Below are positions 18,616 through 30,352 of a DNA stretch of 64,000 nucleotides, piece after piece (positions within the stretch are counted from its first letter, which is position 1; each line of letters opens with the position of its first letter). The notes under the pieces were generated by a model that saw only the letters and a list, made by a program, of their open reading frames with translations, was not told where the DNA came from and searched no databases. The DNA comes from a virus: positions 39,256 through 103,255 of the IMG/VR virus record IMGVR_UViG_3300034374_005666; one strand, 5' to 3'. The translations under genes and the position numbers were made by a program.

Positions 18616-19905
18616 CTAATTTTGAGACAGCAATACTCTGCTATCGTAATGTCCAACAATATTCAAGTCATGCTCTTGGATTAATTCTCCACGCATGCCT
18701 TTTTCTTTCTTTAACTTATCAAACCATTTTTCTTCAAGAGTACCTTGGGTGACTATAAAGTACAGATTAGCTACACCTTCAACCCATCTGATTCTAGCTC
18801 TACGTTGTTCCATATTATGCCACTTAGAGCTATAGCTGAAGAAGATAATATTCTGCACTCCTTCCAATGTAATACCTTGTTTAAGCATTTTACTGGAAGC
18901 AATAACAGGTTCTTCTCCACTATTGAATTTTTCAATCAACTCTAGCGCATTATCTGATCTGACTACAGGGCATATATTCTCTAGTATATCAAGACGTTCA
19001 CCAAATATGAGTGTCTTACCAGATAGTGTACTCAGTAAAGCTTTTGTTGTAGCTACTTTGGACTTCAGATTGTACAGAAAGGTAGTTAATTCTCTACCAA
19101 TAGCCATCTTAAGATACTTTGGTTTACGAAAATCCTTTCTGAAGTTATCTTTCTTTAGATAATACTCTTGCTCTGTACCTAATGTATCATAGCTCTTCCA
19201 TATCTTGATTGATCTGTCTTGAGTATCCAGATGGTGATTGATTATCCAAGTTTGATACTTAGCAATCATACCTTCTTCAATAGCCTGTTTAGTCTCTACT
19301 TTGTATACTACAGGAATATACATAGATAGCAATTGCCCCTTACTAATAAACTCTGTAATCTCTCCTCTTTTAGTTTCTGCATCTGTCTGATAAATTGTAA
19401 GAAGGTCAGCATTATCCTGTATGTCTTGAGGATATACGTGCTGGTCTAAAGACATAGCTCCAGTCAATGCAACAACATGCTTACACTTGTTGTTTATTAT
19501 ATTCTCACTATACTTAGCTGACAAGCCATCTTGAATTTCATCTGCTACCAGTAAACCTATGTTTTCAAAGTTATTAAACTCTTCCACAGGCATAGCTTGA
19601 TAGCATCTGAACTGAATGTTAAAATCAGCTACAGGGTCTTTATCAAACAGGCTTTTAAACTTAGGTATTTCATCTTCAAACAATGTCTTTTCACGTACTA
19701 TAGTCTCTGCCAGAAATACAATAGTATCTCCTTTATTGATCTTTCCATCTTCCAGCAATCTATATGCAGCCTTCAGGGAAGCTATAGTTTTACCAGCACC
19801 AGGAAACAGCATCCATGTACCTACATAGTTATTTTGTACCCAAGCTTCTACAGCTTGGTCTTGATGGTAATTCAGTCTTTCTATATTTCTTTTCATAGTC
19901 TGCAT
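18616..19905 (-). CDS. superfamily 2 helicase
   Basis: GAGKT, VADEIQD, LTGA, MLKQGITL, QRRARIR. Confidence 0.85.
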   Translation of the reverse strand: MQTMKRNIERLNYHQDQAVEAWVQNNYVGTWMLFPGAGKTIASLKAAYRLLEDGKINKGDTIVFLAETIVREKTLFEDEIPKFKSLFDKDPVADFNIQFRCYQAMPVEEFNNFENIGLLVADEIQDGLSAKYSENIINNKCKHVVALTGAMSLDQHVYPQDIQDNADLLTIYQTDAETKRGEITEFISKGQLLSMYIPVVYKVETKQAIEEGMIAKYQTWIINHHLDTQDRSIKIWKSYDTLGTEQEYYLKKDNFRKDFRKPKYLKMAIGRELTTFLYNLKSKVATTKALLSTLSGKTLIFGERLDILENICPVVRSDNALELIEKFNSGEEPVIASSKMLKQGITLEGVQNIIFFSYSSKWHNMEQRRARIRWVEGVANLYFIVTQGTLEEKWFDKLKKEKGMRGELIQEHDLNIVGHYDSRVLLSQN

Positions 19906-20030
19906 ATTATTCTGTTGCTTAAAGTTAAATCAATTGCTCTATCTGGAATAGAGTATGCTGTTCTATTGTAATACTTGTATTCATATCTAAATAAAGGATA
20001 AAAGAAACAGTAATATTTTAGATATAACAT
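19893..20030 (-). CDS. RIIC-family mini-protein, 45 aa
   Basis: MLYLKYYCFFYPLFRYEYKYYNRTAYSIPDRAIDLTLSNRIICRL. Confidence 0.75.
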   Translation of the reverse strand: MLYLKYYCFFYPLFRYEYKYYNRTAYSIPDRAIDLTLSNRIICRL

Positions 20031-20149
20031 AGTATTCTGTTTGAAATTCTTCTGGCTCGAAAGCCAGCTCTTGTCCACCCAGCAGCATTAAAATGAAATA
20101 AATCTATATAGCTTGCTTTTTTGTAAAGTTTAGTCTTTATAAGTAGCAT
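20018..20149 (-). CDS. RIIC-family mini-protein, 43 aa
   Basis: MLLIKTKLYKKASYIDLFHFNAAGWTRAGFRARRISNRILCYI. Confidence 0.75.
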   Translation of the reverse strand: MLLIKTKLYKKASYIDLFHFNAAGWTRAGFRARRISNRILCYI

Positions 20150-20280
20150 AGTATTCTATTTGATAAAGCATCAAGACCTGATATATCCCACTCATAAACT
20201 TTAACCCAATCTTCTGGTTCTTCCCTATAACGGTTAGCCCATACTAACCTAGTACCATAAATCATATTTATACAAAACAT
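20137..20280 (-). CDS. RIIC-family mini-protein, 47 aa
   Basis: MFCINMIYGTRLVWANRYREEPEDWVKVYEWDISGLDALSNRILCYL. Confidence 0.75.
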   Translation of the reverse strand: MFCINMIYGTRLVWANRYREEPEDWVKVYEWDISGLDALSNRILCYL

Positions 20281-20408
20281 ACTATTCTATTTGATGCAAA
20301 CTGATAGTTTACTTGGCTCCAATGTTTGACACAAGTAATTGTGTGGTCTAGATAAACTGATGACCATCTAAAATTATAACTATCATAAAGTTTATTTAAC
20401 AGTAACAT
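20268..20408 (-). CDS. RIIC-family mini-protein, 46 aa
   Basis: MLLLNKLYDSYNFRWSSVYLDHTITCVKHWSQVNYQFASNRIVCFV. Confidence 0.75.
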   Translation of the reverse strand: MLLLNKLYDSYNFRWSSVYLDHTITCVKHWSQVNYQFASNRIVCFV

Positions 20409-20545
20409 ACTATTCTTATTGTGTTGTCTGAAGGTGGTATGAATCTACTGTAGTAAGGGTCTTCCCGTTCTTCATGGTAAAACACAGATCTGTAGTTACT
20501 ATGACAGTAAAAAGTTATTGCTGTAACTATTTCTATATTACACAT
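20396..20545 (-). CDS. RIIC-family mini-protein, 49 aa
   Basis: MCNIEIVTAITFYCHSNYRSVFYHEEREDPYYSRFIPPSDNTIRIVCYC. Confidence 0.75.
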   Translation of the reverse strand: MCNIEIVTAITFYCHSNYRSVFYHEEREDPYYSRFIPPSDNTIRIVCYC

Positions 20546-20670
20546 AATATTCTATTTGTAATAAACCAAGCTCCTGCATGGCTATAAAAATCATGGAAAT
20601 CCCATCCTGGTTCAAATGACCAGTCATATACGTGCTCACCATATAAAGCAGAGTGATTTAAAATATACAT
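20533..20670 (-). CDS. RIIC-family mini-protein, 45 aa
   Basis: MYILNHSALYGEHVYDWSFEPGWDFHDFYSHAGAWFITNRILCVI. Confidence 0.75.
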   Translation of the reverse strand: MYILNHSALYGEHVYDWSFEPGWDFHDFYSHAGAWFITNRILCVI

Positions 20671-20798
20671 ATTATTCTATTTGTAAATCCGTTATCGTGA
20701 TATTCCATTATACTTAATATTGCTACATACCTATACGTAGTCCAGTAATAATGATCTAATACTATAAATCCATATGTTGTGTAACTTATATGTAGCAT
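20658..20798 (-). CDS. RIIC-family mini-protein, 46 aa
   Basis: MLHISYTTYGFIVLDHYYWTTYRYVAILSIMEYHDNGFTNRIICIF. Confidence 0.75.
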   Translation of the reverse strand: MLHISYTTYGFIVLDHYYWTTYRYVAILSIMEYHDNGFTNRIICIF

Positions 20799-20926
20799 AC
20801 TGTTTTGAATGTTTGTACTCTGTTTAATCTTCTAATAAACCAAAGAATCAGCCTATATTTAAAAGAAAACCTTGTTTTATGTATATAGTTAACTCCTTTA
20901 GGACTAACTATCATTATACGTAGCAT
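20786..20926 (-). CDS. RIIC-family mini-protein, 46 aa
   Basis: MLRIMIVSPKGVNYIHKTRFSFKYRLILWFIRRLNRVQTFKTVCYI. Confidence 0.7.
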   Translation of the reverse strand: MLRIMIVSPKGVNYIHKTRFSFKYRLILWFIRRLNRVQTFKTVCYI

Positions 20927-21036
20927 ACTGGCCTAATTGTGTCTATTCTTATAAATAAAGTAATTGGAAACCATCTATTAGAAAAAGAACACTCAAAGTT
21001 ATAGTTCAAGCATTGTTTAAATCCTAGTTTTCGCAT
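20914..21036 (-). CDS. RIIC-family mini-protein, 40 aa
   Basis: MRKLGFKQCLNYNFECSFSNRWFPITLFIRIDTIRPVCYV. Confidence 0.65.
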   Translation of the reverse strand: MRKLGFKQCLNYNFECSFSNRWFPITLFIRIDTIRPVCYV

Positions 21037-21094
21037 GTGCGTATATTGTTTATATTATTCTGAATACCTATGTTTGTTGTAAACAGAATAACTT

Positions 21095-21910
21095 ATGCAG
21101 ATCAATAAGATTAATGATCTATACATGGAAATACGTATTCCATACAGATCAATGAGGACTTCTTCCTATTTTCATTTATGCTCAGATGTTCACTTCGATA
21201 ATCCAGACTCAGACCAAAAGCTCTTCTTTAGCCATCTGGACAAGATTAAAAGCCTTAATGGTAAAAGCTTAATCTTTGGTGATTTCCTCTGTTTAATGCA
21301 GGGAAAATACGACCTGCGTAGTGATAAATCTAAGATCAGACCAGAGCATAACAAGAGCAATTATCTTGATGCTGTACTTGACGATACGGCGGATAAACTC
21401 AAACCTTACAAAAAGACTTTGGGTATGATTAGCTTAGGTAATCACGAAAGCCGCGTTATTGAAAGAAATGAAATTGATCCATTGCATAACTTAGCATTAC
21501 GTCTCAAAGGACTAAATACTATGGGTTATCATGGATTTATAAAGTTTATCTTTCACAACAATGGTTCTAAAGTAAGGTCATGTCTTCTCTATTTCCATCA
21601 TGGTAAATGGGGCAGTATAACCAGTTCAGTTAATAAACATGGACTTTCTGTACCACAAGCAGATATTATTGTCTCAGGTCACACACATTCTGAATTTTAT
21701 GTACCTGTACCTAGATTAAATCTGCGACAAAATGGTGAAGTAAGTATTACTAAACAGCATCACATTAAGTGTGGTACTTATAAAGATGAGTTTTTGACTA
21801 CTAAAGGTTTTGGAGTAGAAAGAATAGCTGTACCTAAGAATATAGGTTCATGGCTACTCAAGCTTACACCTACAGAAAAAGATGTAGATATTAAGTTTGA
21901 GTCTATGTAA
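21095..21910 (+). CDS. calcineurin-like metallophosphoesterase
   Basis: DVH, GD, GNHE, HHG, GHTH motifs. Confidence 0.85.
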   Translation: MQINKINDLYMEIRIPYRSMRTSSYFHLCSDVHFDNPDSDQKLFFSHLDKIKSLNGKSLIFGDFLCLMQGKYDLRSDKSKIRPEHNKSNYLDAVLDDTADKLKPYKKTLGMISLGNHESRVIERNEIDPLHNLALRLKGLNTMGYHGFIKFIFHNNGSKVRSCLLYFHHGKWGSITSSVNKHGLSVPQADIIVSGHTHSEFYVPVPRLNLRQNGEVSITKQHHIKCGTYKDEFLTTKGFGVERIAVPKNIGSWLLKLTPTEKDVDIKFESM

Positions 21911-22049
21911 TGCAGATTATTCTATTTGTTAACCAATAAGACCTTTCTAAGAAATTATCATGGTAAGGCCATTTGTTCCAATCAGCTAATTCAGCTTCAA
22001 AATCTTCATGGTTGTAGTAAAGAAATAAACATTCATTTACATGTAACAT
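21903..22049 (-). CDS. RIIC-family mini-protein, 48 aa
   Basis: MLHVNECLFLYYNHEDFEAELADWNKWPYHDNFLERSYWLTNRIICIT. Confidence 0.75.
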   Translation of the reverse strand: MLHVNECLFLYYNHEDFEAELADWNKWPYHDNFLERSYWLTNRIICIT

Positions 22050-22183
22050 ATCATTCTCATTGTAGTATTGCTGTTAAGCACAGCATGTATAATCTTACGA
22101 CTTTCTAGTATTGCATCTATTCCCTCAAACAAATTATCAAAAGTTTCAAACAGAATAAATCTAAAACAATTTATAGTATGCAT
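22037..22183 (-). CDS. RIIC-family mini-protein, 48 aa
   Basis: MHTINCFRFILFETFDNLFEGIDAILESRKIIHAVLNSNTTMRMICYM. Confidence 0.7.
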   Translation of the reverse strand: MHTINCFRFILFETFDNLFEGIDAILESRKIIHAVLNSNTTMRMICYM

Positions 22184-22305
22184 ATAGTACGTATTGTAGT
22201 GTCTGTATATCCAAAGTTTCCACCATAAACAAAAGAGTATTTAAATAAATTACCCATTGACAAATAGCATGTGTATGCTTTAATACAATTGAGTAGTTTT
22301 ATCAT
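22171..22305 (-). CDS. RIIC-family mini-protein, 44 aa
   Basis: MIKLLNCIKAYTCYLSMGNLFKYSFVYGGNFGYTDTTIRTICIL. Confidence 0.7.
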   Translation of the reverse strand: MIKLLNCIKAYTCYLSMGNLFKYSFVYGGNFGYTDTTIRTICIL

Positions 22306-22469
22306 ACTTCAAACGTTTTATTCCACACATACACTAGTATGTGATAGAATCCATCATTCTTAGCTACTATATAGTAACCTTTCATATCTGTAACTAATCT
22401 TTCTAATTCAATCTCAAGCATATATGCAGGTATAACTGCAATATATGCACCATTCAAGTCTTCCAGCAT
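22302..22469 (-). CDS. non-family small protein within array 2, 55 aa
   Basis: MLEDLNGAYIAVIPAYMLEIELERLVTDMKGYYIVAKNDGFYHILVYVWNKTFEV; ATGA overlap with next unit. Confidence 0.55.
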   Translation of the reverse strand: MLEDLNGAYIAVIPAYMLEIELERLVTDMKGYYIVAKNDGFYHILVYVWNKTFEV

Positions 22470-22479
22470 TTGTTTACTA

Positions 22480-22608
22480 TTATAAGTGACATAATATTCT
22501 TATTGATTGGTCATCTATTCTCATTGCCATTACCCAATGATTATTGCTGTATTCAAAATTATAAGATGGAAATTTTGGATAGCTTATAAGCCGTTTTATA
22601 CATAGCAT
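22480..22608 (-). CDS. RIIC-family mini-protein, 42 aa
   Basis: MLCIKRLISYPKFPSYNFEYSNNHWVMAMRIDDQSIRILCHL. Confidence 0.75.
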   Translation of the reverse strand: MLCIKRLISYPKFPSYNFEYSNNHWVMAMRIDDQSIRILCHL

Positions 22609-22727
22609 AATATTCTGTTTGATTTGTCTCGTATTTCTAAAGAAGTATTTATAAAAACATTATCTTCATACCATTTATAACTGTATGAGTCATATACTTT
22701 TGTTATACATTTTATTATAGTTGACAT
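22596..22727 (-). CDS. RIIC-family mini-protein, 43 aa
   Basis: MSTIIKCITKVYDSYSYKWYEDNVFINTSLEIRDKSNRILCYV. Confidence 0.75.
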   Translation of the reverse strand: MSTIIKCITKVYDSYSYKWYEDNVFINTSLEIRDKSNRILCYV

Positions 22728-22834
22728 ATTATTCTATAGTTTGTGTATCTTTGTCTCAAGTATTTAAGTGCAAAAGACTGGAATTTAAAATTGAGTAAGT
22801 AATGACGAGTACCTTTTGCTATAAATGACAGCAT
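22715..22834 (-). CDS. RIIC-family mini-protein, 39 aa
   Basis: MLSFIAKGTRHYLLNFKFQSFALKYLRQRYTNYRIICQL. Confidence 0.7.
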   Translation of the reverse strand: MLSFIAKGTRHYLLNFKFQSFALKYLRQRYTNYRIICQL

Positions 22835-22959
22835 ATTCTTAATGATTCATCTAAACTAAAGTGAAGAAATACACCAAACTTTTGATCTAATAAAATCTCT
22901 TTATGAGAGTATGTTATCCAAAGTCTTGTATAGGTTAAAAAAGTCTTTATATGTAGCAT
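22819..22959 (-). CDS. RIIC-family mini-protein, 46 aa
   Basis: MLHIKTFLTYTRLWITYSHKEILLDQKFGVFLHFSLDESLRICCHL. Confidence 0.7.
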   Translation of the reverse strand: MLHIKTFLTYTRLWITYSHKEILLDQKFGVFLHFSLDESLRICCHL

Positions 22960-23084
22960 ATAACTCTATTTGTGCTGCTAAGAAAGCTTACATACTTGTT
23001 CTTATCTATATTGGTAAAGAAACGTGCATTAAAGCTAATCAACTGTTTGTTTATAAATGACTCATAAAAAATAATTCTTAACAT
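22947..23084 (-). CDS. RIIC-family mini-protein, 45 aa
   Basis: MLRIIFYESFINKQLISFNARFFTNIDKNKYVSFLSSTNRVICYI. Confidence 0.75.
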   Translation of the reverse strand: MLRIIFYESFINKQLISFNARFFTNIDKNKYVSFLSSTNRVICYI

Positions 23085-23102
23085 AGTTCAGCATAAATTA
23101 AA

Positions 23103-23137
23103 GAACCCTGACATCCAATTAAGGACATCAGGGTCTT
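23103..23137 (-). terminator. hairpin between HEEH-type gene and array 2
   Basis: ACCCTGA/TCAGGGT stem. Confidence 0.5.
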
Positions 23138-23170
23138 GTTTACCAATAACCAGCTTGGTTAAAAAAATAA

Positions 23171-23455
23171 TTAGTCGTACATCTCCATGTTACGCTCAGT
23201 AAATGGGTTGTATTCCCGTGCAATGATATTCTCATGTACACCTGCTGGAACTTGTACAGCTCCATGAGGTTCACGTACTTGAGAGTGACCTTTTACAGGT
23301 ACTTCATGGTTGATTACGCTGTCTACAGTAGTCTGATACAAGAAATTGCTCAATGGAGCATCGCCTTTGATAGTGATTTTCTTCTTCACTACTGGCTGTG
23401 CTGATTTCAGTACGTGCGCATGTGTACCTTCAGCAAGAACTAATTTGTGATTCAT
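23171..23455 (-). CDS. small His-rich beta protein, usual partner of DUF6745-like proteins
   Basis: LVLAEGTHAHVL...INHE...H..VQVPAGVH..IIAREYNP resembles the LAEGE.TGH.H...HEEH...LP.G.Y...QREY.P family. Confidence 0.6.
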   Translation of the reverse strand: MNHKLVLAEGTHAHVLKSAQPVVKKKITIKGDAPLSNFLYQTTVDSVINHEVPVKGHSQVREPHGAVQVPAGVHENIIAREYNPFTERNMEMYD

Positions 23456-23498
23456 TGTTAAACTAGTTTTAATGATTTACAAATATAATAAAATAATC

Positions 23499-24239
23499 TT
23501 AAGTCTGCTGATTAATGAGCTTAAAGAACTCATCTCCAGACAAATAGTAAGGTGTGACAGGTTTTAGCTCAGAACTATCTTTAACATCGTAAGTAACTGT
23601 ATAGACCTCACCTTGACGATTGATCTCTTTAATCTGCTTTTTGTCGTGTGTGATTTCACACAGCCAAGCTACTGCGTCTTTGACAGAATAGCTACCCTGC
23701 TGGCAAAAGTTTTCTCTGTCATCTACAGTTGCCCAATACTCTCTGTGAGTAGAAGGACACCAGAACTGAATAGCAAACACATCTCTACGCCTGTCTTCAA
23801 AGCCTAGTTCTTTTGGGCTGATAGACCATAAATGATATGTATCACCTATGTTAGACTCCCTGTTATCAGGCTCAAAGTTGAAAGTATCTACTTTCTTTTT
23901 GTTCTCTATATTATTGAACATTTGAGCAGGCCCAATATAGAAGAAAGCAATACGGCGCAGGTCTATATTCTCAATATGACTGGCTGCCTTAAAGTCAATA
24001 GCTTCTACTGAAGCCCAAATATCATCTAAGAAGCTCTTTAGCTCCTCCAGTGCCTTATTGTAAGCATTAATATGCTCCATGTTAAGATTCGTACCTTTGA
24101 TCTTCTTAGGCTCAAAGATGTCTGTTTCTTCTCTGTACATTTCAGCTGTAGTATCATATCTGGCTTTCATAATGCTACAGAACATATCAAACTTGATAGG
24201 CACATTGTCGATTGTAAAACTCAGTTTGCTAGGATTCAT
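23499..24239 (-). CDS. DUF6745-like domain protein
   Basis: ENIDLRRIAF..IG, FWCPSTHREY..TVD, VKDAVAW. Confidence 0.6.
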   Translation of the reverse strand: MNPSKLSFTIDNVPIKFDMFCSIMKARYDTTAEMYREETDIFEPKKIKGTNLNMEHINAYNKALEELKSFLDDIWASVEAIDFKAASHIENIDLRRIAFFYIGPAQMFNNIENKKKVDTFNFEPDNRESNIGDTYHLWSISPKELGFEDRRRDVFAIQFWCPSTHREYWATVDDRENFCQQGSYSVKDAVAWLCEITHDKKQIKEINRQGEVYTVTYDVKDSSELKPVTPYYLSGDEFFKLINQQT

Positions 24240-24243
24240 AGAC

Positions 24244-24885
24244 TTAATCTTTTTTAGTTACATACTCTACACATACTTCAAGAAAGTTACCAATCATGTC
24301 ATACAGACCATATTTATTTGGCATCTTGGTTCCAGGCAGTGCAGGTTTTTGCCCACTATTACCAGGATGGACAGCTACTGCATCAAGACCATGCTCTTTA
24401 ATCTGGTCTTCTGCATCTGCTTTAAGGAACTCCCACTCATCTACTGAGGGAAGTCTAAAGCCTTTCACATTAATATCTGATAGAAATACCCCATCATCAT
24501 TAATGACATATGGTAATTCAGGTAATCCAAGAAAAACATTATATTCAGCAAATGTTTTGTCTGCATGTTCGTGATTAGCATCCATCTCACCTACTTTAGT
24601 AACTTCAGTAAGCCAGTTTAGATAGTGACACACGTCAATATCTCTGATATTAGCTACTGGTAGATTTCCCCTACCAAAGCCTGAATCTGACGGGAGTGTA
24701 CGTCCTGTAGCAATACAGAACTTAGCCCATTGATTATGGCTAGTAGGATAGATTGCAGCAAAGAACCTACTGTTAAAGTTCTCTGGCTTAAGTACTTCAA
24801 TATACTCATTAGTAAGTTCCACAAATGGTGGCAACTCATGGTCAGTCTGTGTGACAACAGGCTGTGCTCCAAATGTAAATTCCAT
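24244..24885 (-). CDS. FGE-sulfatase (SUMF1)/C-type-lectin-fold protein, C-terminally truncated
   Basis: LPVANI..DVCHYLNWL, GFRLPSVDEWEF, GTKMPNKYGLYDMIGNFLEVC; lacks the RGGSW...GFR tail. Confidence 0.8.
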   Translation of the reverse strand: MEFTFGAQPVVTQTDHELPPFVELTNEYIEVLKPENFNSRFFAAIYPTSHNQWAKFCIATGRTLPSDSGFGRGNLPVANIRDIDVCHYLNWLTEVTKVGEMDANHEHADKTFAEYNVFLGLPELPYVINDDGVFLSDINVKGFRLPSVDEWEFLKADAEDQIKEHGLDAVAVHPGNSGQKPALPGTKMPNKYGLYDMIGNFLEVCVEYVTKKD

Positions 24886-24896
24886 AACTTGATTGT

Positions 24897-26756
24897 TTAG
24901 AAGATTGTTAGTTGATTATTTCTTTCAATTGTTTGTATAATACTGTTAGCCTGATGAATATAAAAGCTGTAATCTATGTCAGATATAGCTTCATCAGTAT
25001 GAGTGTTATACAGTTTAACACCATAGCCTTTTAGCATATGGGTCTTTTTATTGTTCTTTAGCTTGTACAAGTATTTTCCTTTCTTACTTACATAGTACCT
25101 ATTTAATCTTTGAGGAAGAACCTCATCTCCATATACAACTTTAAAGCTTTTATCTACTTTTTTAGACAAACAGTAATTGAATATATGATGGTCACCTTTA
25201 ATGTAGCTGTCTACAGATTGTCCTGTTCTAAAATAGTTTACTATAGCTTTTGGTACAATTAGCATATTACAGCTATCACCAAGATTAGGATTTTCTATAA
25301 AGCTTGAACCTTTAGTCTTGTATTTACCATTAGGTTTAATGGCAATATAGTTATTTACATTAGCATAGCATATTTTAGAATATTGCTCATGCTCAAATTC
25401 AAGATTAAATGTTTTTCCTACATTATCTACTATAGATAGGTATTCTTGTTCTCTATCGACAGGTACTATACACTCAAGACCGTCTGTATTCAAGCTGACT
25501 ACCTGAAAACCAGCAATAGCTAAATCTTCAAGAGTTTTAGTGAGTACAAGTTGTCCTTGCAGTCTCATCTTCATAGCTCCTTCTGGATAATACAACCATG
25601 AGTAAGGACTATCAAGTAAACCCGACAGACTATTAAGTACAAGCTTTAGAGTAACATTCTTTGCTCCATCACCTGTACGCTTAGCTTCCATACGTTCATC
25701 TTTGATACGTATGTAACTATTAAGTACTTCAGACTGTCTAATCAAACCATAGTTAATGATAAGATTTGGATATAGTGAACCTACGTCTGATGTATACACA
25801 ATATTGTGCTTATCAGATGTATATATTTCATTATTGTTTACTGAATGTATACCACCTACACCATAGCTCAATTTAATAGCAGTATTTCTATGTATAAAGT
25901 TTAATTCTGTATGAAATTCTCTACCTGCACATTGCATAGATGTGTATAATGTCTTGAAAATATGAAGCTTAAACTCTGGATTATGTAGTTCAAGACATTC
26001 ATTGCTATTGTATGTGCTTTTACGAGTTTCGTATTTGTCTGCACCTGTTTGTTTACAATATTCATCAAGCATAATCTCAGATGCAATCTTAGGAGCATCC
26101 CAAGACAAGCAATCAAGGTTATATGTTCTTTGAATATTGCGTCTAAGTTCTATCTGTTCTGCTACTGTAGTAGGTTTACCTTGCCATCTGATGGTATCAA
26201 ACAGTATTTTACGCATAATACCCATATCATGCTCATAATTGTAGTGTTTGACTTCTTCAGCCTGACTACGACTTAAATGCATACCAGGTGGATATGGCAG
26301 CTCTTGCACTATAGGATATCCAAGTTGTATACCTAAAGATTTCAAACTAATCTTTTTACTCAGTCTGAGCATTCTAGACCAGTGTAGATATACATCTATA
26401 TCAATCCAGGGATGATTGTATTTGTACTTTTTAAGATTCTGTTGTCTCCACCACATATCAGTACGTATAATATACTGACTAAATTTATCAATCTCTGCAC
26501 ATATTTCATGTACAGGTAATTGTTTGAGACTATCGTATTGTACTATTATAAATTTGATAACAGGACTATCATAGTGTATACCATTAAAACTAACTAGTTC
26601 TGCATTATGCAAGGCAGTATTATATGTCCATACTATTTTATCTAAATCATCTTGCCACTCACTAATTTCTAGTATTTCTTTCTCACCTGTATTATAGTTT
26701 TCTATAGTAGTACAAAAAAAGTTAGGATATACTTCTATGTCATGTCCATACATCAT
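24897..26756 (-). CDS. DNA polymerase family B
   Basis: Exonuclease DIEVY, FNGIHYD, YNYEHD; polymerase DVGSLYPN, KLVLNSLSG, NTDG. Confidence 0.92.
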   Translation of the reverse strand: MMYGHDIEVYPNFFCTTIENYNTGEKEILEISEWQDDLDKIVWTYNTALHNAELVSFNGIHYDSPVIKFIIVQYDSLKQLPVHEICAEIDKFSQYIIRTDMWWRQQNLKKYKYNHPWIDIDVYLHWSRMLRLSKKISLKSLGIQLGYPIVQELPYPPGMHLSRSQAEEVKHYNYEHDMGIMRKILFDTIRWQGKPTTVAEQIELRRNIQRTYNLDCLSWDAPKIASEIMLDEYCKQTGADKYETRKSTYNSNECLELHNPEFKLHIFKTLYTSMQCAGREFHTELNFIHRNTAIKLSYGVGGIHSVNNNEIYTSDKHNIVYTSDVGSLYPNLIINYGLIRQSEVLNSYIRIKDERMEAKRTGDGAKNVTLKLVLNSLSGLLDSPYSWLYYPEGAMKMRLQGQLVLTKTLEDLAIAGFQVVSLNTDGLECIVPVDREQEYLSIVDNVGKTFNLEFEHEQYSKICYANVNNYIAIKPNGKYKTKGSSFIENPNLGDSCNMLIVPKAIVNYFRTGQSVDSYIKGDHHIFNYCLSKKVDKSFKVVYGDEVLPQRLNRYYVSKKGKYLYKLKNNKKTHMLKGYGVKLYNTHTDEAISDIDYSFYIHQANSIIQTIERNNQLTIF

Positions 26757-26869
26757 AATTTACATATTATTCTTATTGTAAAGTAGTCAGGTCTAGATTG
26801 CCATGACCAAACCCAAAAGTCTGTATACGCTGTTTTACCAACATCTTTAAAGTATTTTATATGTAGCAT
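26753..26869 (-). CDS. RIIC-family mini-protein, 38 aa
   Basis: MLHIKYFKDVGKTAYTDFWVWSWQSRPDYFTIRIICKL. Confidence 0.75.
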   Translation of the reverse strand: MLHIKYFKDVGKTAYTDFWVWSWQSRPDYFTIRIICKL

Positions 26870-26994
26870 ATTATTCTTATTGTATAAGATTCAGGGAGTA
26901 TCCAACCCATTAGAAACCACTTAAAAAGAAATACACTTTCATCTCTAAAGAAATAAGAAAAACCAGAAAGTCTATATTTATCTATATATAACAT
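26857..26994 (-). CDS. RIIC-family mini-protein, 45 aa
   Basis: MLYIDKYRLSGFSYFFRDESVFLFKWFLMGWILPESYTIRIICYI. Confidence 0.75.
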   Translation of the reverse strand: MLYIDKYRLSGFSYFFRDESVFLFKWFLMGWILPESYTIRIICYI

Positions 26995-27125
26995 ATTATT
27001 CTAATTGTAGTACCTCTTGGAAAGACCATATCTATTAAATTCCAATGAAACGTAGACTTATGCTTAAACAACCTTTCTACATATCTCTCTGAACCTATTA
27101 AAACTAAATTATCTACATAACGCAT
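26982..27125 (-). CDS. RIIC-family mini-protein, 47 aa
   Basis: MRYVDNLVLIGSERYVERLFKHKSTFHWNLIDMVFPRGTTIRIICYI. Confidence 0.75.
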   Translation of the reverse strand: MRYVDNLVLIGSERYVERLFKHKSTFHWNLIDMVFPRGTTIRIICYI

Positions 27126-27256
27126 ACTATTCTATTTTCAACTGTTGAGGGAAGATTCATTCGTAAAATAGACCAATCAAAATTATTCCAAGGTTTATCA
27201 AATGTTGACATGTAAGTAATATTCTCTAATAGTCTATAATGTTTTATACGTAGCAT
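27113..27256 (-). CDS. RIIC-family mini-protein, 47 aa
   Basis: MLRIKHYRLLENITYMSTFDKPWNNFDWSILRMNLPSTVENRIVCVM. Confidence 0.75.
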   Translation of the reverse strand: MLRIKHYRLLENITYMSTFDKPWNNFDWSILRMNLPSTVENRIVCVM

Positions 27257-27387
27257 ATTATTCTAGTTGTCATTGACATAGTAATAGGCCAATTAGGCTC
27301 AAAAAACCAAGAAAAGCCATTGAAATCTATATCTCCTGAATTATAGCTATAATTTTCTTTTCTGCATATTCTATTTATACGTAACAT
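27244..27387 (-). CDS. RIIC-family mini-protein, 47 aa
   Basis: MLRINRICRKENYSYNSGDIDFNGFSWFFEPNWPITMSMTTRIICYV. Confidence 0.75.
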   Translation of the reverse strand: MLRINRICRKENYSYNSGDIDFNGFSWFFEPNWPITMSMTTRIICYV

Positions 27388-27518
27388 AGTATTCTAATTG
27401 TTTCTACTCTATCAAAAAATATATTATTATCATTTTCAAGTATCCATTGTAAAGGTCTGTCTCCTACACGCCCATAAGTAAATCTTCCTTCGACACCTAT
27501 ATATACTATAAGTTGCAT
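27375..27518 (-). CDS. RIIC-family mini-protein, 47 aa
   Basis: MQLIVYIGVEGRFTYGRVGDRPLQWILENDNNIFFDRVETIRILCYV. Confidence 0.75.
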   Translation of the reverse strand: MQLIVYIGVEGRFTYGRVGDRPLQWILENDNNIFFDRVETIRILCYV

Positions 27519-27664
27519 ATTATTCTGATTGTTTCATCGTTAAGCATGATATCAAGCGGGCTAGAATCTCCACTAAGGCCAAACTCCAAAGCATCAATTT
27601 CTATAGAATTTGAAAACCATGAAAAACCTGAAGTAAGCTTATACATTAATGTTATATTACGCAT
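27506..27664 (-). CDS. RIIC-family mini-protein, 52 aa
   Basis: MRNITLMYKLTSGFSWFSNSIEIDALEFGLSGDSSPLDIMLNDETIRIICNL. Confidence 0.75.
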   Translation of the reverse strand: MRNITLMYKLTSGFSWFSNSIEIDALEFGLSGDSSPLDIMLNDETIRIICNL

Positions 27665-27810
27665 ATCGATCTTATTGTTTCTACATCATCTGTACGTAAA
27701 GAAGATGTACTTATTATAAACCAAGCTCTAAGCTCTATATCATCTCTTTCATGTTCATATTTCCATGAACATGTGCCTAATGTTCTTATCAATCCTATTA
27801 CAGCATGCAT
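27652..27810 (-). CDS. RIIC-family mini-protein, 52 aa
   Basis: MHAVIGLIRTLGTCSWKYEHERDDIELRAWFIISTSSLRTDDVETIRSICVI. Confidence 0.75.
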   Translation of the reverse strand: MHAVIGLIRTLGTCSWKYEHERDDIELRAWFIISTSSLRTDDVETIRSICVI

Positions 27811-27950
27811 ATTATTCTAATTGATTCAGTATCTCCTGTGTTTACAGGCCAGTGAACTAATAAATTCCATGCCTTTATAGCATGAGGATAATAATGTTTA
27901 TCCCTGTTTGAATAATTACCTAAAACAATTAATGTTTTTACATTCATCAT
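27798..27950 (-). CDS. RIIC-family mini-protein, 50 aa
   Basis: MMNVKTLIVLGNYSNRDKHYYPHAIKAWNLLVHWPVNTGDTESIRIICML. Confidence 0.75.
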   Translation of the reverse strand: MMNVKTLIVLGNYSNRDKHYYPHAIKAWNLLVHWPVNTGDTESIRIICML

Positions 27951-27963
27951 AGGCTGTTAGATT

Positions 27964-27997
27964 AAAAAAGAGCAACTCAATTAAGAATTGCTCTTTT
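27964..27997 (-). terminator. terminator-like hairpin immediately upstream of array 3
   Basis: AAAAGAGCAA/TTGCTCTTTT stem with poly-T on minus strand. Confidence 0.65.
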
Positions 27998-27999
27998 GT

Positions 28000-28515
28000 T
28001 TATTTGTATTTTGGATCGAAGCAATATACATGGTAGCCTACCTGCTTCCATGCGTATTTTTCAATGTATTTATACCAACTTGTATTAGGATTGTCATTTG
28101 CACCTATAAAGTATGCAATTCCTTCAGGTGCTGGCCTGTAACCCTTAAGAACCATCTCTGCAGCCTCATAGTGGACTTCTAGGGGCTTTTTATTGAAGTT
28201 GTCTGTATACGCTCCATAATAAGCCTTGCCTCTGCTGTAGGTCTTAAAAATGGCTCCATACACATCCGTATTATATTTTTTGGTTTTGTGTAACACAGTC
28301 TGAGCTATTATCATATTGGACAATAGACCTTGGTTGCAATCTTCCGATCTGATAAGTCTTGCAATAAGTTCTTTATCAGTCTGATTGACTGGTCTCACTG
28401 TGATTTCAGGGAGCGTTATGGTAGGAATAAGAATATGCTCATAAGTATGAGCTGACTGAATGGTTAATGGTATAAATATCAGTAGAAATACAATAAATCT
28501 AGCATACATGTTCAA
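28000..28515 (-). CDS. SleB-like cell wall hydrolase (Hydrolase_2)
   Basis: N-terminal TM/signal; LIARLIRSE, IAQTVL, YF, QVGYHVY. Confidence 0.7.
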   Translation of the reverse strand: MNMYARFIVFLLIFIPLTIQSAHTYEHILIPTITLPEITVRPVNQTDKELIARLIRSEDCNQGLLSNMIIAQTVLHKTKKYNTDVYGAIFKTYSRGKAYYGAYTDNFNKKPLEVHYEAAEMVLKGYRPAPEGIAYFIGANDNPNTSWYKYIEKYAWKQVGYHVYCFDPKYK

Positions 28516-29869: not shown

Positions 29870-30352
29870 CTAGTTTTTTAATGAGTAAGACTTATTAATA
29901 ATAAAATGCAAAGTTCCTTTACTAGAAATATTAAATTTTTTCATGGTTTTATTATAACTTTTTACTTTATTATAATAGTCTATAATCTCTTTGTGTTTGT
30001 GTTTACGTACTTTAGATGTAGCAATTAATGCTCTTTTTATTCTTATTTGCTCAGGGATATCCATTTGATTTTCAGACTGATTACCTATAGCAATATTTTC
30101 CCAAGAATTATCTAAAGGGTTTCCATTTAGATGTCTAACTTGAATACCTGCTTCAAAGATTTTATCACCGTATTTTTGATAAGCTTGTATTCTGTGAATA
30201 CTAAATTTTTTATTACGACCTTTAATTTTTATAGCAACTTTGTAATATCCATTGTTTATATAACCCACTTGATTGCCTCTTTTGCTGTAACATAACCCTT
30301 CTTCTGTTACAAAATAACCTCTTTCGATCGCAATTTTTTCTATTCTTTTCAT
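29870..30352 (-). CDS. HNH homing endonuclease
   Basis: IHRIQA...VRHLNGNPLDNSWENI...SEN. Confidence 0.85.
   Translation of the reverse strand: MKRIEKIAIERGYFVTEEGLCYSKRGNQVGYINNGYYKVAIKIKGRNKKFSIHRIQAYQKYGDKIFEAGIQVRHLNGNPLDNSWENIAIGNQSENQMDIPEQIRIKRALIATSKVRKHKHKEIIDYYNKVKSYNKTMKKFNISSKGTLHFIINKSYSLKN

Follow-up and report, generated by a model that had tools for sequence, protein, structure and literature searches.

What does a phage gain from encoding a lectin-fold protein that stops short of the end of its fold, and is this protein completed in trans by the peptides of neighbouring mini-genes? The question is raised by a 213-aa open reading frame and three arrays of very small genes in a 64,000-nt stretch of viral DNA (hereafter the window), which covers the right-hand 64 kb of a 103-kb IMG/VR virus record that occurs in freshwater metagenomes and is estimated to be 95% complete. 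FGE-type lectin folds are a classic scaffold for massive sequence variation, and to our knowledge all described diversification of this fold acts on one polypeptide, which is varied by diversity-generating retroelement (DGR) mutagenesis. An earlier note, made from the DNA letters alone, had proposed something different for this locus, namely a split receptor in which one constant scaffold takes up any of 26 swappable peptides.

Genomic context

By its DNA polymerase, which matches crAss-like phage polymerases at 31% identity across 99% of its length, the source genome is a distant crAss-like phage. The FGE-like gene and the arrays sit within its minus-strand replication module. Read 5' to 3', the order starts with a cell-wall hydrolase-like gene, array 3 and the polymerase, continues with the FGE-like gene, the 246-aa gene and the 94-aa gene, and ends with array 2, a plus-strand metallophosphoesterase, array 1 and a 429-aa gene. 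Coordinates are collected in Table 1.

Some further observations concern the surroundings of the module. The metallophosphoesterase gene is inverted between arrays 1 and 2, in a region that otherwise runs on the minus strand. A 160-aa ORF (HRIQAY...HLNGNPLDNSWENIAIGNQSEN) looks by eye like an HNH-type homing endonuclease, a putative assignment. Contigs from an estuary metatranscriptome map at 21826-22001, 23138-23531, 24250-24879, 25729-26426 and 27722-27872, and cover the first array 2 unit, the 94-aa gene, the FGE-like gene, the polymerase and two array 3 minis, respectively; DNA carry-over into an RNA library is possible, hence these contigs are not read as expression.

Table 1. Features of the locus and of the related contigs (positions in the window, or in the contig named).
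Feature	Position	Strand	Remark
429-aa gene	18616-19905	minus	
Array 1, nine chained ORFs, 40-49 aa	19893-21036	minus	
Calcineurin-like metallophosphoesterase	21095-21910	plus	Pfam E 1.7e-4
Array 2, eight chained ORFs, 39-48 aa	21903-23084	minus	
55-aa ORF	22302-22469	minus	Within array 2
94-aa protein	23171-23455	minus	Downstream of the 246-aa gene
246-aa protein	23499-24239	minus	Next gene downstream of the scaffold; belongs to the recurring module
Tail-less FGE-type C-type-lectin-fold scaffold, 213 aa	24244-24885	minus	Pfam PF03781 and short homologues
DNA polymerase	24897-26756	minus	Context gene
Array 3, nine chained ORFs, 38-52 aa	26753-27950	minus	
Example of the ~27-nt dual-coding junction, ACAATAAGAATAATATGCTACATATAA	26857-26883	minus	
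47-aa mini used in the complex prediction	27244-27387	minus	
160-aa ORF	29870-30352	minus	Putative HNH-type homing endonuclease
Second mini-gene family	L190:11572-15624, L191:11381-16716, L192:11058-15583		Downstream of the FGE-like gene

A conserved FGE-type protein without its C-terminal strands

The profile search places the 213-aa protein in the FGE-sulfatase family (PF03781, E 2.7e-9; 37.5 bits against a gathering cut-off of 23.3), but as an incomplete domain. Residues 40-207 correspond to profile positions 61-191 of 255, while positions 1-60 are unmatched and the final ~64 positions, which hold the C-terminal RVxRGGSW...GFR strands, have no counterpart. The chain ends in ...GLYDMIGNFLEVCVEYVTKKD, with the stop codon 8 residues past GLYDMIGNFLEVC (GNFLEVC), so that the earlier description of an FGE-sulfatase pattern breaking off 8 residues after this motif is correct.

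HMMER retrieved 6821 homologues of the protein at E<=1e-3, and match ends were mapped in the best 150 of them. Every one of the approximately 40 long homologues, which are usually multi-domain proteins, runs on for 50-65 further residues after GNxWEW and carries RVxRGGSW...GFRxx there, as had been assumed for the normal course of this fold, and the canonical RVxRGGSW...GFR continuation is also found in all complete metagenome loci. Seven short homologues among the best 150 stop 3-11 residues past the GN motif, like the query, and all seven share the alignment start position of the query. Their identities to it are 95% (P0001), 50% (P0002), 39% (P0006) and 30-35% (P0032, P0069, P0111 and P0114), the six clusters other than P0001 being 181-212 aa long and 30-51% identical to the scaffold. 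In addition, a strain about 95% alike, found in a seawater metagenome run at a depth of ~250, differs in the scaffold gene by synonymous changes in 11 of the 12 differences listed. Given same-length homologues at 30-51% identity and these synonymous strain differences, we regard the truncation as real, precise and old, and the sequences indicate a gene under purifying selection and no pseudogene. Recent pseudogenisation, the objection that the earlier note had raised against its own proposal, is ruled out on the same two grounds. A missing tail downstream or in another frame was rejected as well: the next ORF begins 5 nt past the stop and contains neither RGGSW nor GFR.

The closest relative of solved structure is the DGR variable protein TvpA (PDB 2y3c, E 8.4e-21), and the match to it stops at chain residue 232 of 294, which we take to be the point before its variable region. 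In phage genomes, tblastn of the scaffold against INPHARED gave no match, and the same search with P0002, P0032 and P0069 retrieved kinase-fused or full-length FGE domains only, the match in MT836415 being a canonical 282-aa protein. Scans of viral contigs with the FGE alignment (A1), P0002, P0006 and P0114 found nothing, and the metagenome scan with P0002 returned full-length canonical FGE genes only. Modelled alone with AF2, the scaffold reached a pLDDT of 68, with residues 166-213 at about 50 or below, and Foldseek on this monomer gave only weak FGE-fold matches (TM about 0.4).

Twenty-six chained mini-genes

The mini-ORFs number 26, as the earlier note had counted, and are 38-52 aa long, all open and distributed as nine, eight and nine over the three arrays; their size is indeed that of a tail. 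Across the 103-kb genome, no further mini-ORFs of this family were found outside the three arrays. Neighbouring minis overlap by 13 nt at all but a few junctions, the start-to-start spacings are all 2 mod 3, and the last ORFs of arrays 1 and 3 overlap the starts of the 429-aa gene and of the DNA polymerase, respectively. With stops that overlap the next start in a fixed phase, the arrays have the layout of translationally coupled overlapping genes. From base composition, we estimate that a 45-codon frame stays open in this 33% GC DNA with a chance of ~3%. Since 26 open frames in fixed phase are found against ~3% chance each, the minis are, on sequence grounds, translated reading frames under selection.

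Counted from the end, Cys(-3) is present in 26/26 minis and Arg(-6) in 25/26. The GGSW-like words reported earlier were all located, with GFSW in minis 27244 and 27506, GFSY in 26857 and GTCSW in 27652. Database homologues of the minis are near-identical strain variants only. Tyr15 is nearly invariant in the mini alignment, an observation of little weight, as aromatic-rich sequences can align a Tyr by chance. The 55-aa ORF within array 2, which separates its units at 22171 and 22480, does not carry the ends of the family, and it had no match in PHROG. When the 47-aa mini was folded alone (AF2, 26-row alignment), the pLDDT was 51 and no secondary structure was predicted.

A dual-coding junction and the turnover of cassettes

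Adjacent minis are joined by a stretch of DNA that is read twice. In the example listed in Table 1, one frame encodes the peptide end TIRIICYI and the stop, and the other frame begins ATG-CTA-CAT-ATA (MLHI), so that the last five codons of one mini and the first four of the next are the same nucleotides in two frames. The codon of the invariant cysteine, TGY, thereby includes the TG of the following ATG. Further upstream, Ile(-5) is encoded by ATA in 20/20 cases, compared with 40% genome-wide, and Thr(-8) by ACA in 16/16 cases, compared with 42%. The junction word AGAATANTATG was counted 18 times, where 0.6 occurrences would be expected. A general ribosome-site motif was ruled out as its origin, as in the window the word is confined to the arrays.

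Because the synonymous sites upstream are fixed, the junction must be constrained as DNA or RNA, besides or instead of as peptide. This has a consequence for the claim that the final xRIIC of the minis resembles the GFRxx strand of the canonical tail. The ends themselves are present as described, yet the likeness does not count as independent evidence, since nucleotide-level constraint acts on the RIIC end, and the overlapping ATG dictates its cysteine. The strand-like mini ends may be side effects of a signal for translational coupling or recombination. Searched as a DNA pattern across IMG/VR, the array junction gave single chance matches only. As to promoter signals, a study of phi14:2 found no common early motif for virion-RNAP promoters (bioRxiv 10.1101/2020.03.07.982082).

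The seawater strain is without exactly one unit at 20548-20672 in array 1 and exactly one at 26763-26866 in array 3, and the joints of these deletions share 14 and 18 bases, respectively. Two more unit-sized skips in the same strain, at 20039-20136 and 27384-27514, may be replacements. Judged from these strain differences, mini cassettes are gained and lost via recombination at the junction.

Comparison of the minis with canonical FGE tails

The profile comparison of the minis with the FGE C-terminus that the earlier note had proposed gave no signal. Using hhalign, the mini alignment against 200 canonical tails yielded a probability of 0.2%, that is, no homology, and the sole aligned block placed TiRIIC on iGFRlv. 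Global profile comparisons with FGE tails, performed for each array, remained inside the column-permutation null. The tail HMM scored the minis slightly above shuffles, with 4/26 over the 95th percentile.

A predicted complex of scaffold and mini

For complex prediction, the scaffold alignment (A1) was combined with the mini alignment (A2), the first row of which was the 47-aa mini of Table 1, one of the 26 peptides. The scaffold-mini complex scored 0.92 in each of three runs, whereas the best of three controls scored 0.00. The 0.92 mark was reached by 58/80 solved complexes and 2/110 mismatched pairs, a rough calibration, since our own alignments were used. The three runs share at least 76% of their contacts; the pLDDT of the partner is low (44-47) and its middle is uncertain, while the scaffold has a pLDDT of 84-85 with the mini, compared with 74-76 with the control partners and 68 alone.

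On the mini side, the confident interface consists of the conserved ends only (residues 3-8 and 37-47), and on the scaffold side of residues 39-48, 76-92, 140-146 and 201-208, with the tightest pairs formed by mini residues 43-46 and scaffold residues 40-44 and 141-146. In the model, the final strand of the mini has the first core strand of the scaffold on one side and the GFRLP strand on the other. As a general rule of the C-type-lectin fold, this is where the C-terminal strand would belong. One mini is thus predicted at the site of the missing strands, and better than the controls, in line with the earlier expectation that the C-terminal strand of the peptide would lie in the GFR position, here against scaffold strands 41-44 and 141-146. 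As structures of full-length FGE folds exist, the predictor may be filling in a fold known to it, and we take the high score to mean that the ends of the peptide would fit the gap, and not as a demonstration of binding.

Recurrence of the module in a second crAss-like clade

In twelve IMG/VR relatives, whose polymerases are 40-48% identical to that of the window, no FGE-like gene and no chained mini-ORFs lie within 10 kb of the polymerase gene. For five of the twelve, the whole record contains no FGE-like gene; in two of the five (100% and 93% complete by estimate), the array is found nowhere by a detector that recovers the window's own arrays. The relatives without the scaffold thus comprise two complete genomes and ten partial ones.

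A scan with P0069 matched three contigs, L190 (47.7 kb), L191 (102 kb) and L192 (105 kb), the polymerases of which are crAss-like and 34-36% identical to that of the window. Each of the three carries in a row a homologue of the 246-aa gene, a gene of ~100 aa, an FGE-like gene and a mini chain. The FGE-like gene is 28% identical to the scaffold (E 1e-18), and its product continues after GNVWKMAVPD with a non-canonical 30-aa tail that contains neither RGGSW nor GFR. The mini chains lie within ~0.5-1 kb of the FGE-like gene and consist of some 20-30 ORFs of 31-61 aa, which overlap by ~4-19 nt and nearly all end in h-T-L-K-H-I; the junction consensus is TTA AAA CA.ATAC.ATGA. No reverse transcriptase was found in these three genomes.

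Profile-profile comparison of the minis in the three contigs with those in the window showed no significant similarity (probability <1%), and the two families share an end pattern of the form small-hydrophobic-basic-x-hydrophobic. A single mini, at 14981-15103 of L191, ends in ...LDIGFRIVVKHIRCR (...IGFRIV) and is alone in having a GFR end of the canonical kind. Against the tail HMM, this mini scored 8.1 bits, compared with 4.7 for the best of 2440 shuffles, which hints at descent of this mini from an FGE tail.

The co-occurrence that the earlier note had suggested examining is consistent with its proposal among the IMG/VR relatives, to which this comparison is limited: arrays accompany the tail-less FGE-like gene in 4/4 genomes, namely the window and the three contigs, which represent two independent lineages only, and in 0/12 of the closer relatives without the scaffold. 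The module of tail-less FGE-like gene, 246-aa gene and mini array is co-present in two distant lineages and co-absent in lineages between them.

The 246-aa protein gave no lead in Pfam, PHROG or the ESM Atlas, and the DUF6745 label given to it earlier was not reproduced by the Pfam search. It is 29% identical (E 1e-17) to the product of the gene beside the FGE-like gene in L190, and scanning IMG/VR with the family profile returned the same three contigs only. The family is marked by the motifs FC(K/Q)(K/Q)GSY, AVAW and RQGEV. All three contigs also hold a gene at the position of the 94-aa gene; the similarity is not significant by BLASTP.

A proposed two-piece binder and the alternatives

The reading that we prefer, with a confidence that comes close to even, is a split binder, in which the tail-less scaffold is completed by the mini peptides through a predicted binding. 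According to this model, the 213-aa protein would be a functional, minimised FGE-type domain lacking the final two core strands together with the variable loop that connects them, and each of the 26 mini peptides would supply the two missing strands. The N-terminal ML-x-I strand of the mini would pair with the last strand of the scaffold, FLEVCVEY, and its C-terminal T-I-R-I-I strand would slot in between scaffold strands 41-44 and 141-146. Each mini would expose its own loop of 25-35 residues at the place where DGR variable proteins bear their ligand-binding surface. One scaffold and 26 tips would then make up a germline-encoded, intracellular binder repertoire in the replication, presumably early, module, and this repertoire would change by whole-cassette gain and loss through recombination at the ~27-nt junction and not by retroelement mutagenesis. 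Both the binding of the parts and its target are inferred.

A more far-reaching claim is that the locus encodes a natural two-piece binder, a constant lectin-fold body that is predicted to be completed non-covalently by any of the 26 peptides and renewed by cassettes without a retroelement, and that the two-piece design recurs in a distant crAss-like clade with another junction and another end motif. We hold this joint claim tentatively, as a substantial possibility that falls short of an even chance.

In favour of a split binder are the exact and conserved truncation, the size of the peptides, the lack of a predicted fold for the mini modelled alone, the specific docking through the conserved ends, which leaves the variable middle free, and the recurrence of the module. 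Against it are the lack of detectable homology, the nucleotide-constrained ends, the reliance on one model in which the predictor may be reproducing solved folds, the separate tail of the L190-L192 scaffolds and the 246-aa protein as an equally good candidate for the partner. The split receptor of the earlier note is thereby upheld as far as complex prediction and co-occurrence go, it gains nothing from mini-tail homology, and it stands as a prediction.

The most serious alternative, which we consider rather less probable without dismissing it, is that two unrelated accessories share a cargo region beside the replication genes: an expanded family of small coupled proteins that act by themselves, e.g. 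in host takeover or anti-defence, and a minimised FGE domain that is sufficient in itself. It would agree well with minis that have no sequence homology to FGE tails, with conserved ends that the nucleotide-level constraint on the dual-coding junction already accounts for, and with a cassette turnover at the junction that requires no partner protein. Moreover, the FGE-like proteins of L190-L192 bear a 30-aa tail of their own, which might close the fold unaided. Two independent proteins would, however, leave unexplained why the predicted complex is specific (0.92 against 0.00 for three controls) and lies exactly at the gap of the missing strands, why the mini is not predicted to fold alone and the C-terminal third of the scaffold is poorly modelled alone, and why the FGE-like gene and the arrays are jointly present or absent in every genome examined.

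It is also conceivable, though unlikely, that the minis act with the 246-aa protein, or with a complex of the 246-aa, 94-aa and FGE-like proteins, for instance as its substrates or ligands. Co-occurrence with the arrays is as good for the 246-aa gene as for the scaffold, and its product could be their real partner, as its family accompanies arrays in 4/4 genomes and adjoins the FGE-like gene in both lineages; yet this family has no Pfam, PHROG or Atlas lead, and the docking prediction already points to a specific site on the scaffold. Finally, the notion of a 213-aa gene left over from a full-length FGE protein or DGR target and now in decay, and of arrays that are repeats without coding function (promoters or recombination sites, for example), would suit the absent canonical tail and a junction conserved at the nucleotide level, but it is largely refuted, and very improbable in our view, given the same-length homologues at 30-51% identity, the 11/12 listed strain differences that are synonymous, and 26/26 open frames of 38-52 codons with a spacing of 2 mod 3 against a chance of ~3% each.

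If the split binder is true, a scaffold completed in trans by an encoded peptide library would be a new viral route to binder diversity. It would also explain the purpose of at least some of the puzzling mini-gene arrays of phages, and would offer protein engineers a natural split-lectin display system. Should the link between the two parts not hold, two findings would still stand: tail-less FGE domains form a conserved family, and the 26-member array turns over its cassettes at strain level. In the full-text literature searched, no description of a split lectin-fold protein combined with a peptide library was found.

Comparison with known systems

Among known systems, the scaffold is most like TvpA of Treponema denticola, with which it agrees up to GNVxEW and which is its best solved sequence relative. 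In TvpA as well as in Mtd of the Bordetella phage, a variable C-terminal segment between two conserved strands forms the binding surface, and the minis are similar in length to this segment. Unlike in TvpA, the variable segment is not part of the scaffold polypeptide. The genome has no reverse transcriptase either, as the earlier note had supposed: no PF00078 match at E<=0.1 was obtained in the 103-kb genome (95% complete), and by this the scaffold falls outside the definition of a DGR target. A direct-repeat scan of 19500-28200 gave junction repeats and short two-copy families only among the 20 largest families. In contrast to a DGR, diversity would come from 26 separate peptides together with cassette gain and loss, and the candidate tips, unlike DGR variable proteins, show no detectable homology to the canonical tail.

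The likeness to FGE/SUMF1 (PF03781) lies in the family score, which is above the gathering threshold. In human FGE, the catalytic cysteines lie in the C-terminal part of the domain. The scaffold differs in having no such part and is therefore not an FGE enzyme. Finally, the arrays resemble the translationally coupled mini-gene arrays of other phages in their tiny chained genes, the dual-coding stop/start junction and the gain and loss of units. What sets them apart from those arrays is the predicted docking site on a neighbouring tail-less domain and the co-occurrence with this domain across lineages.
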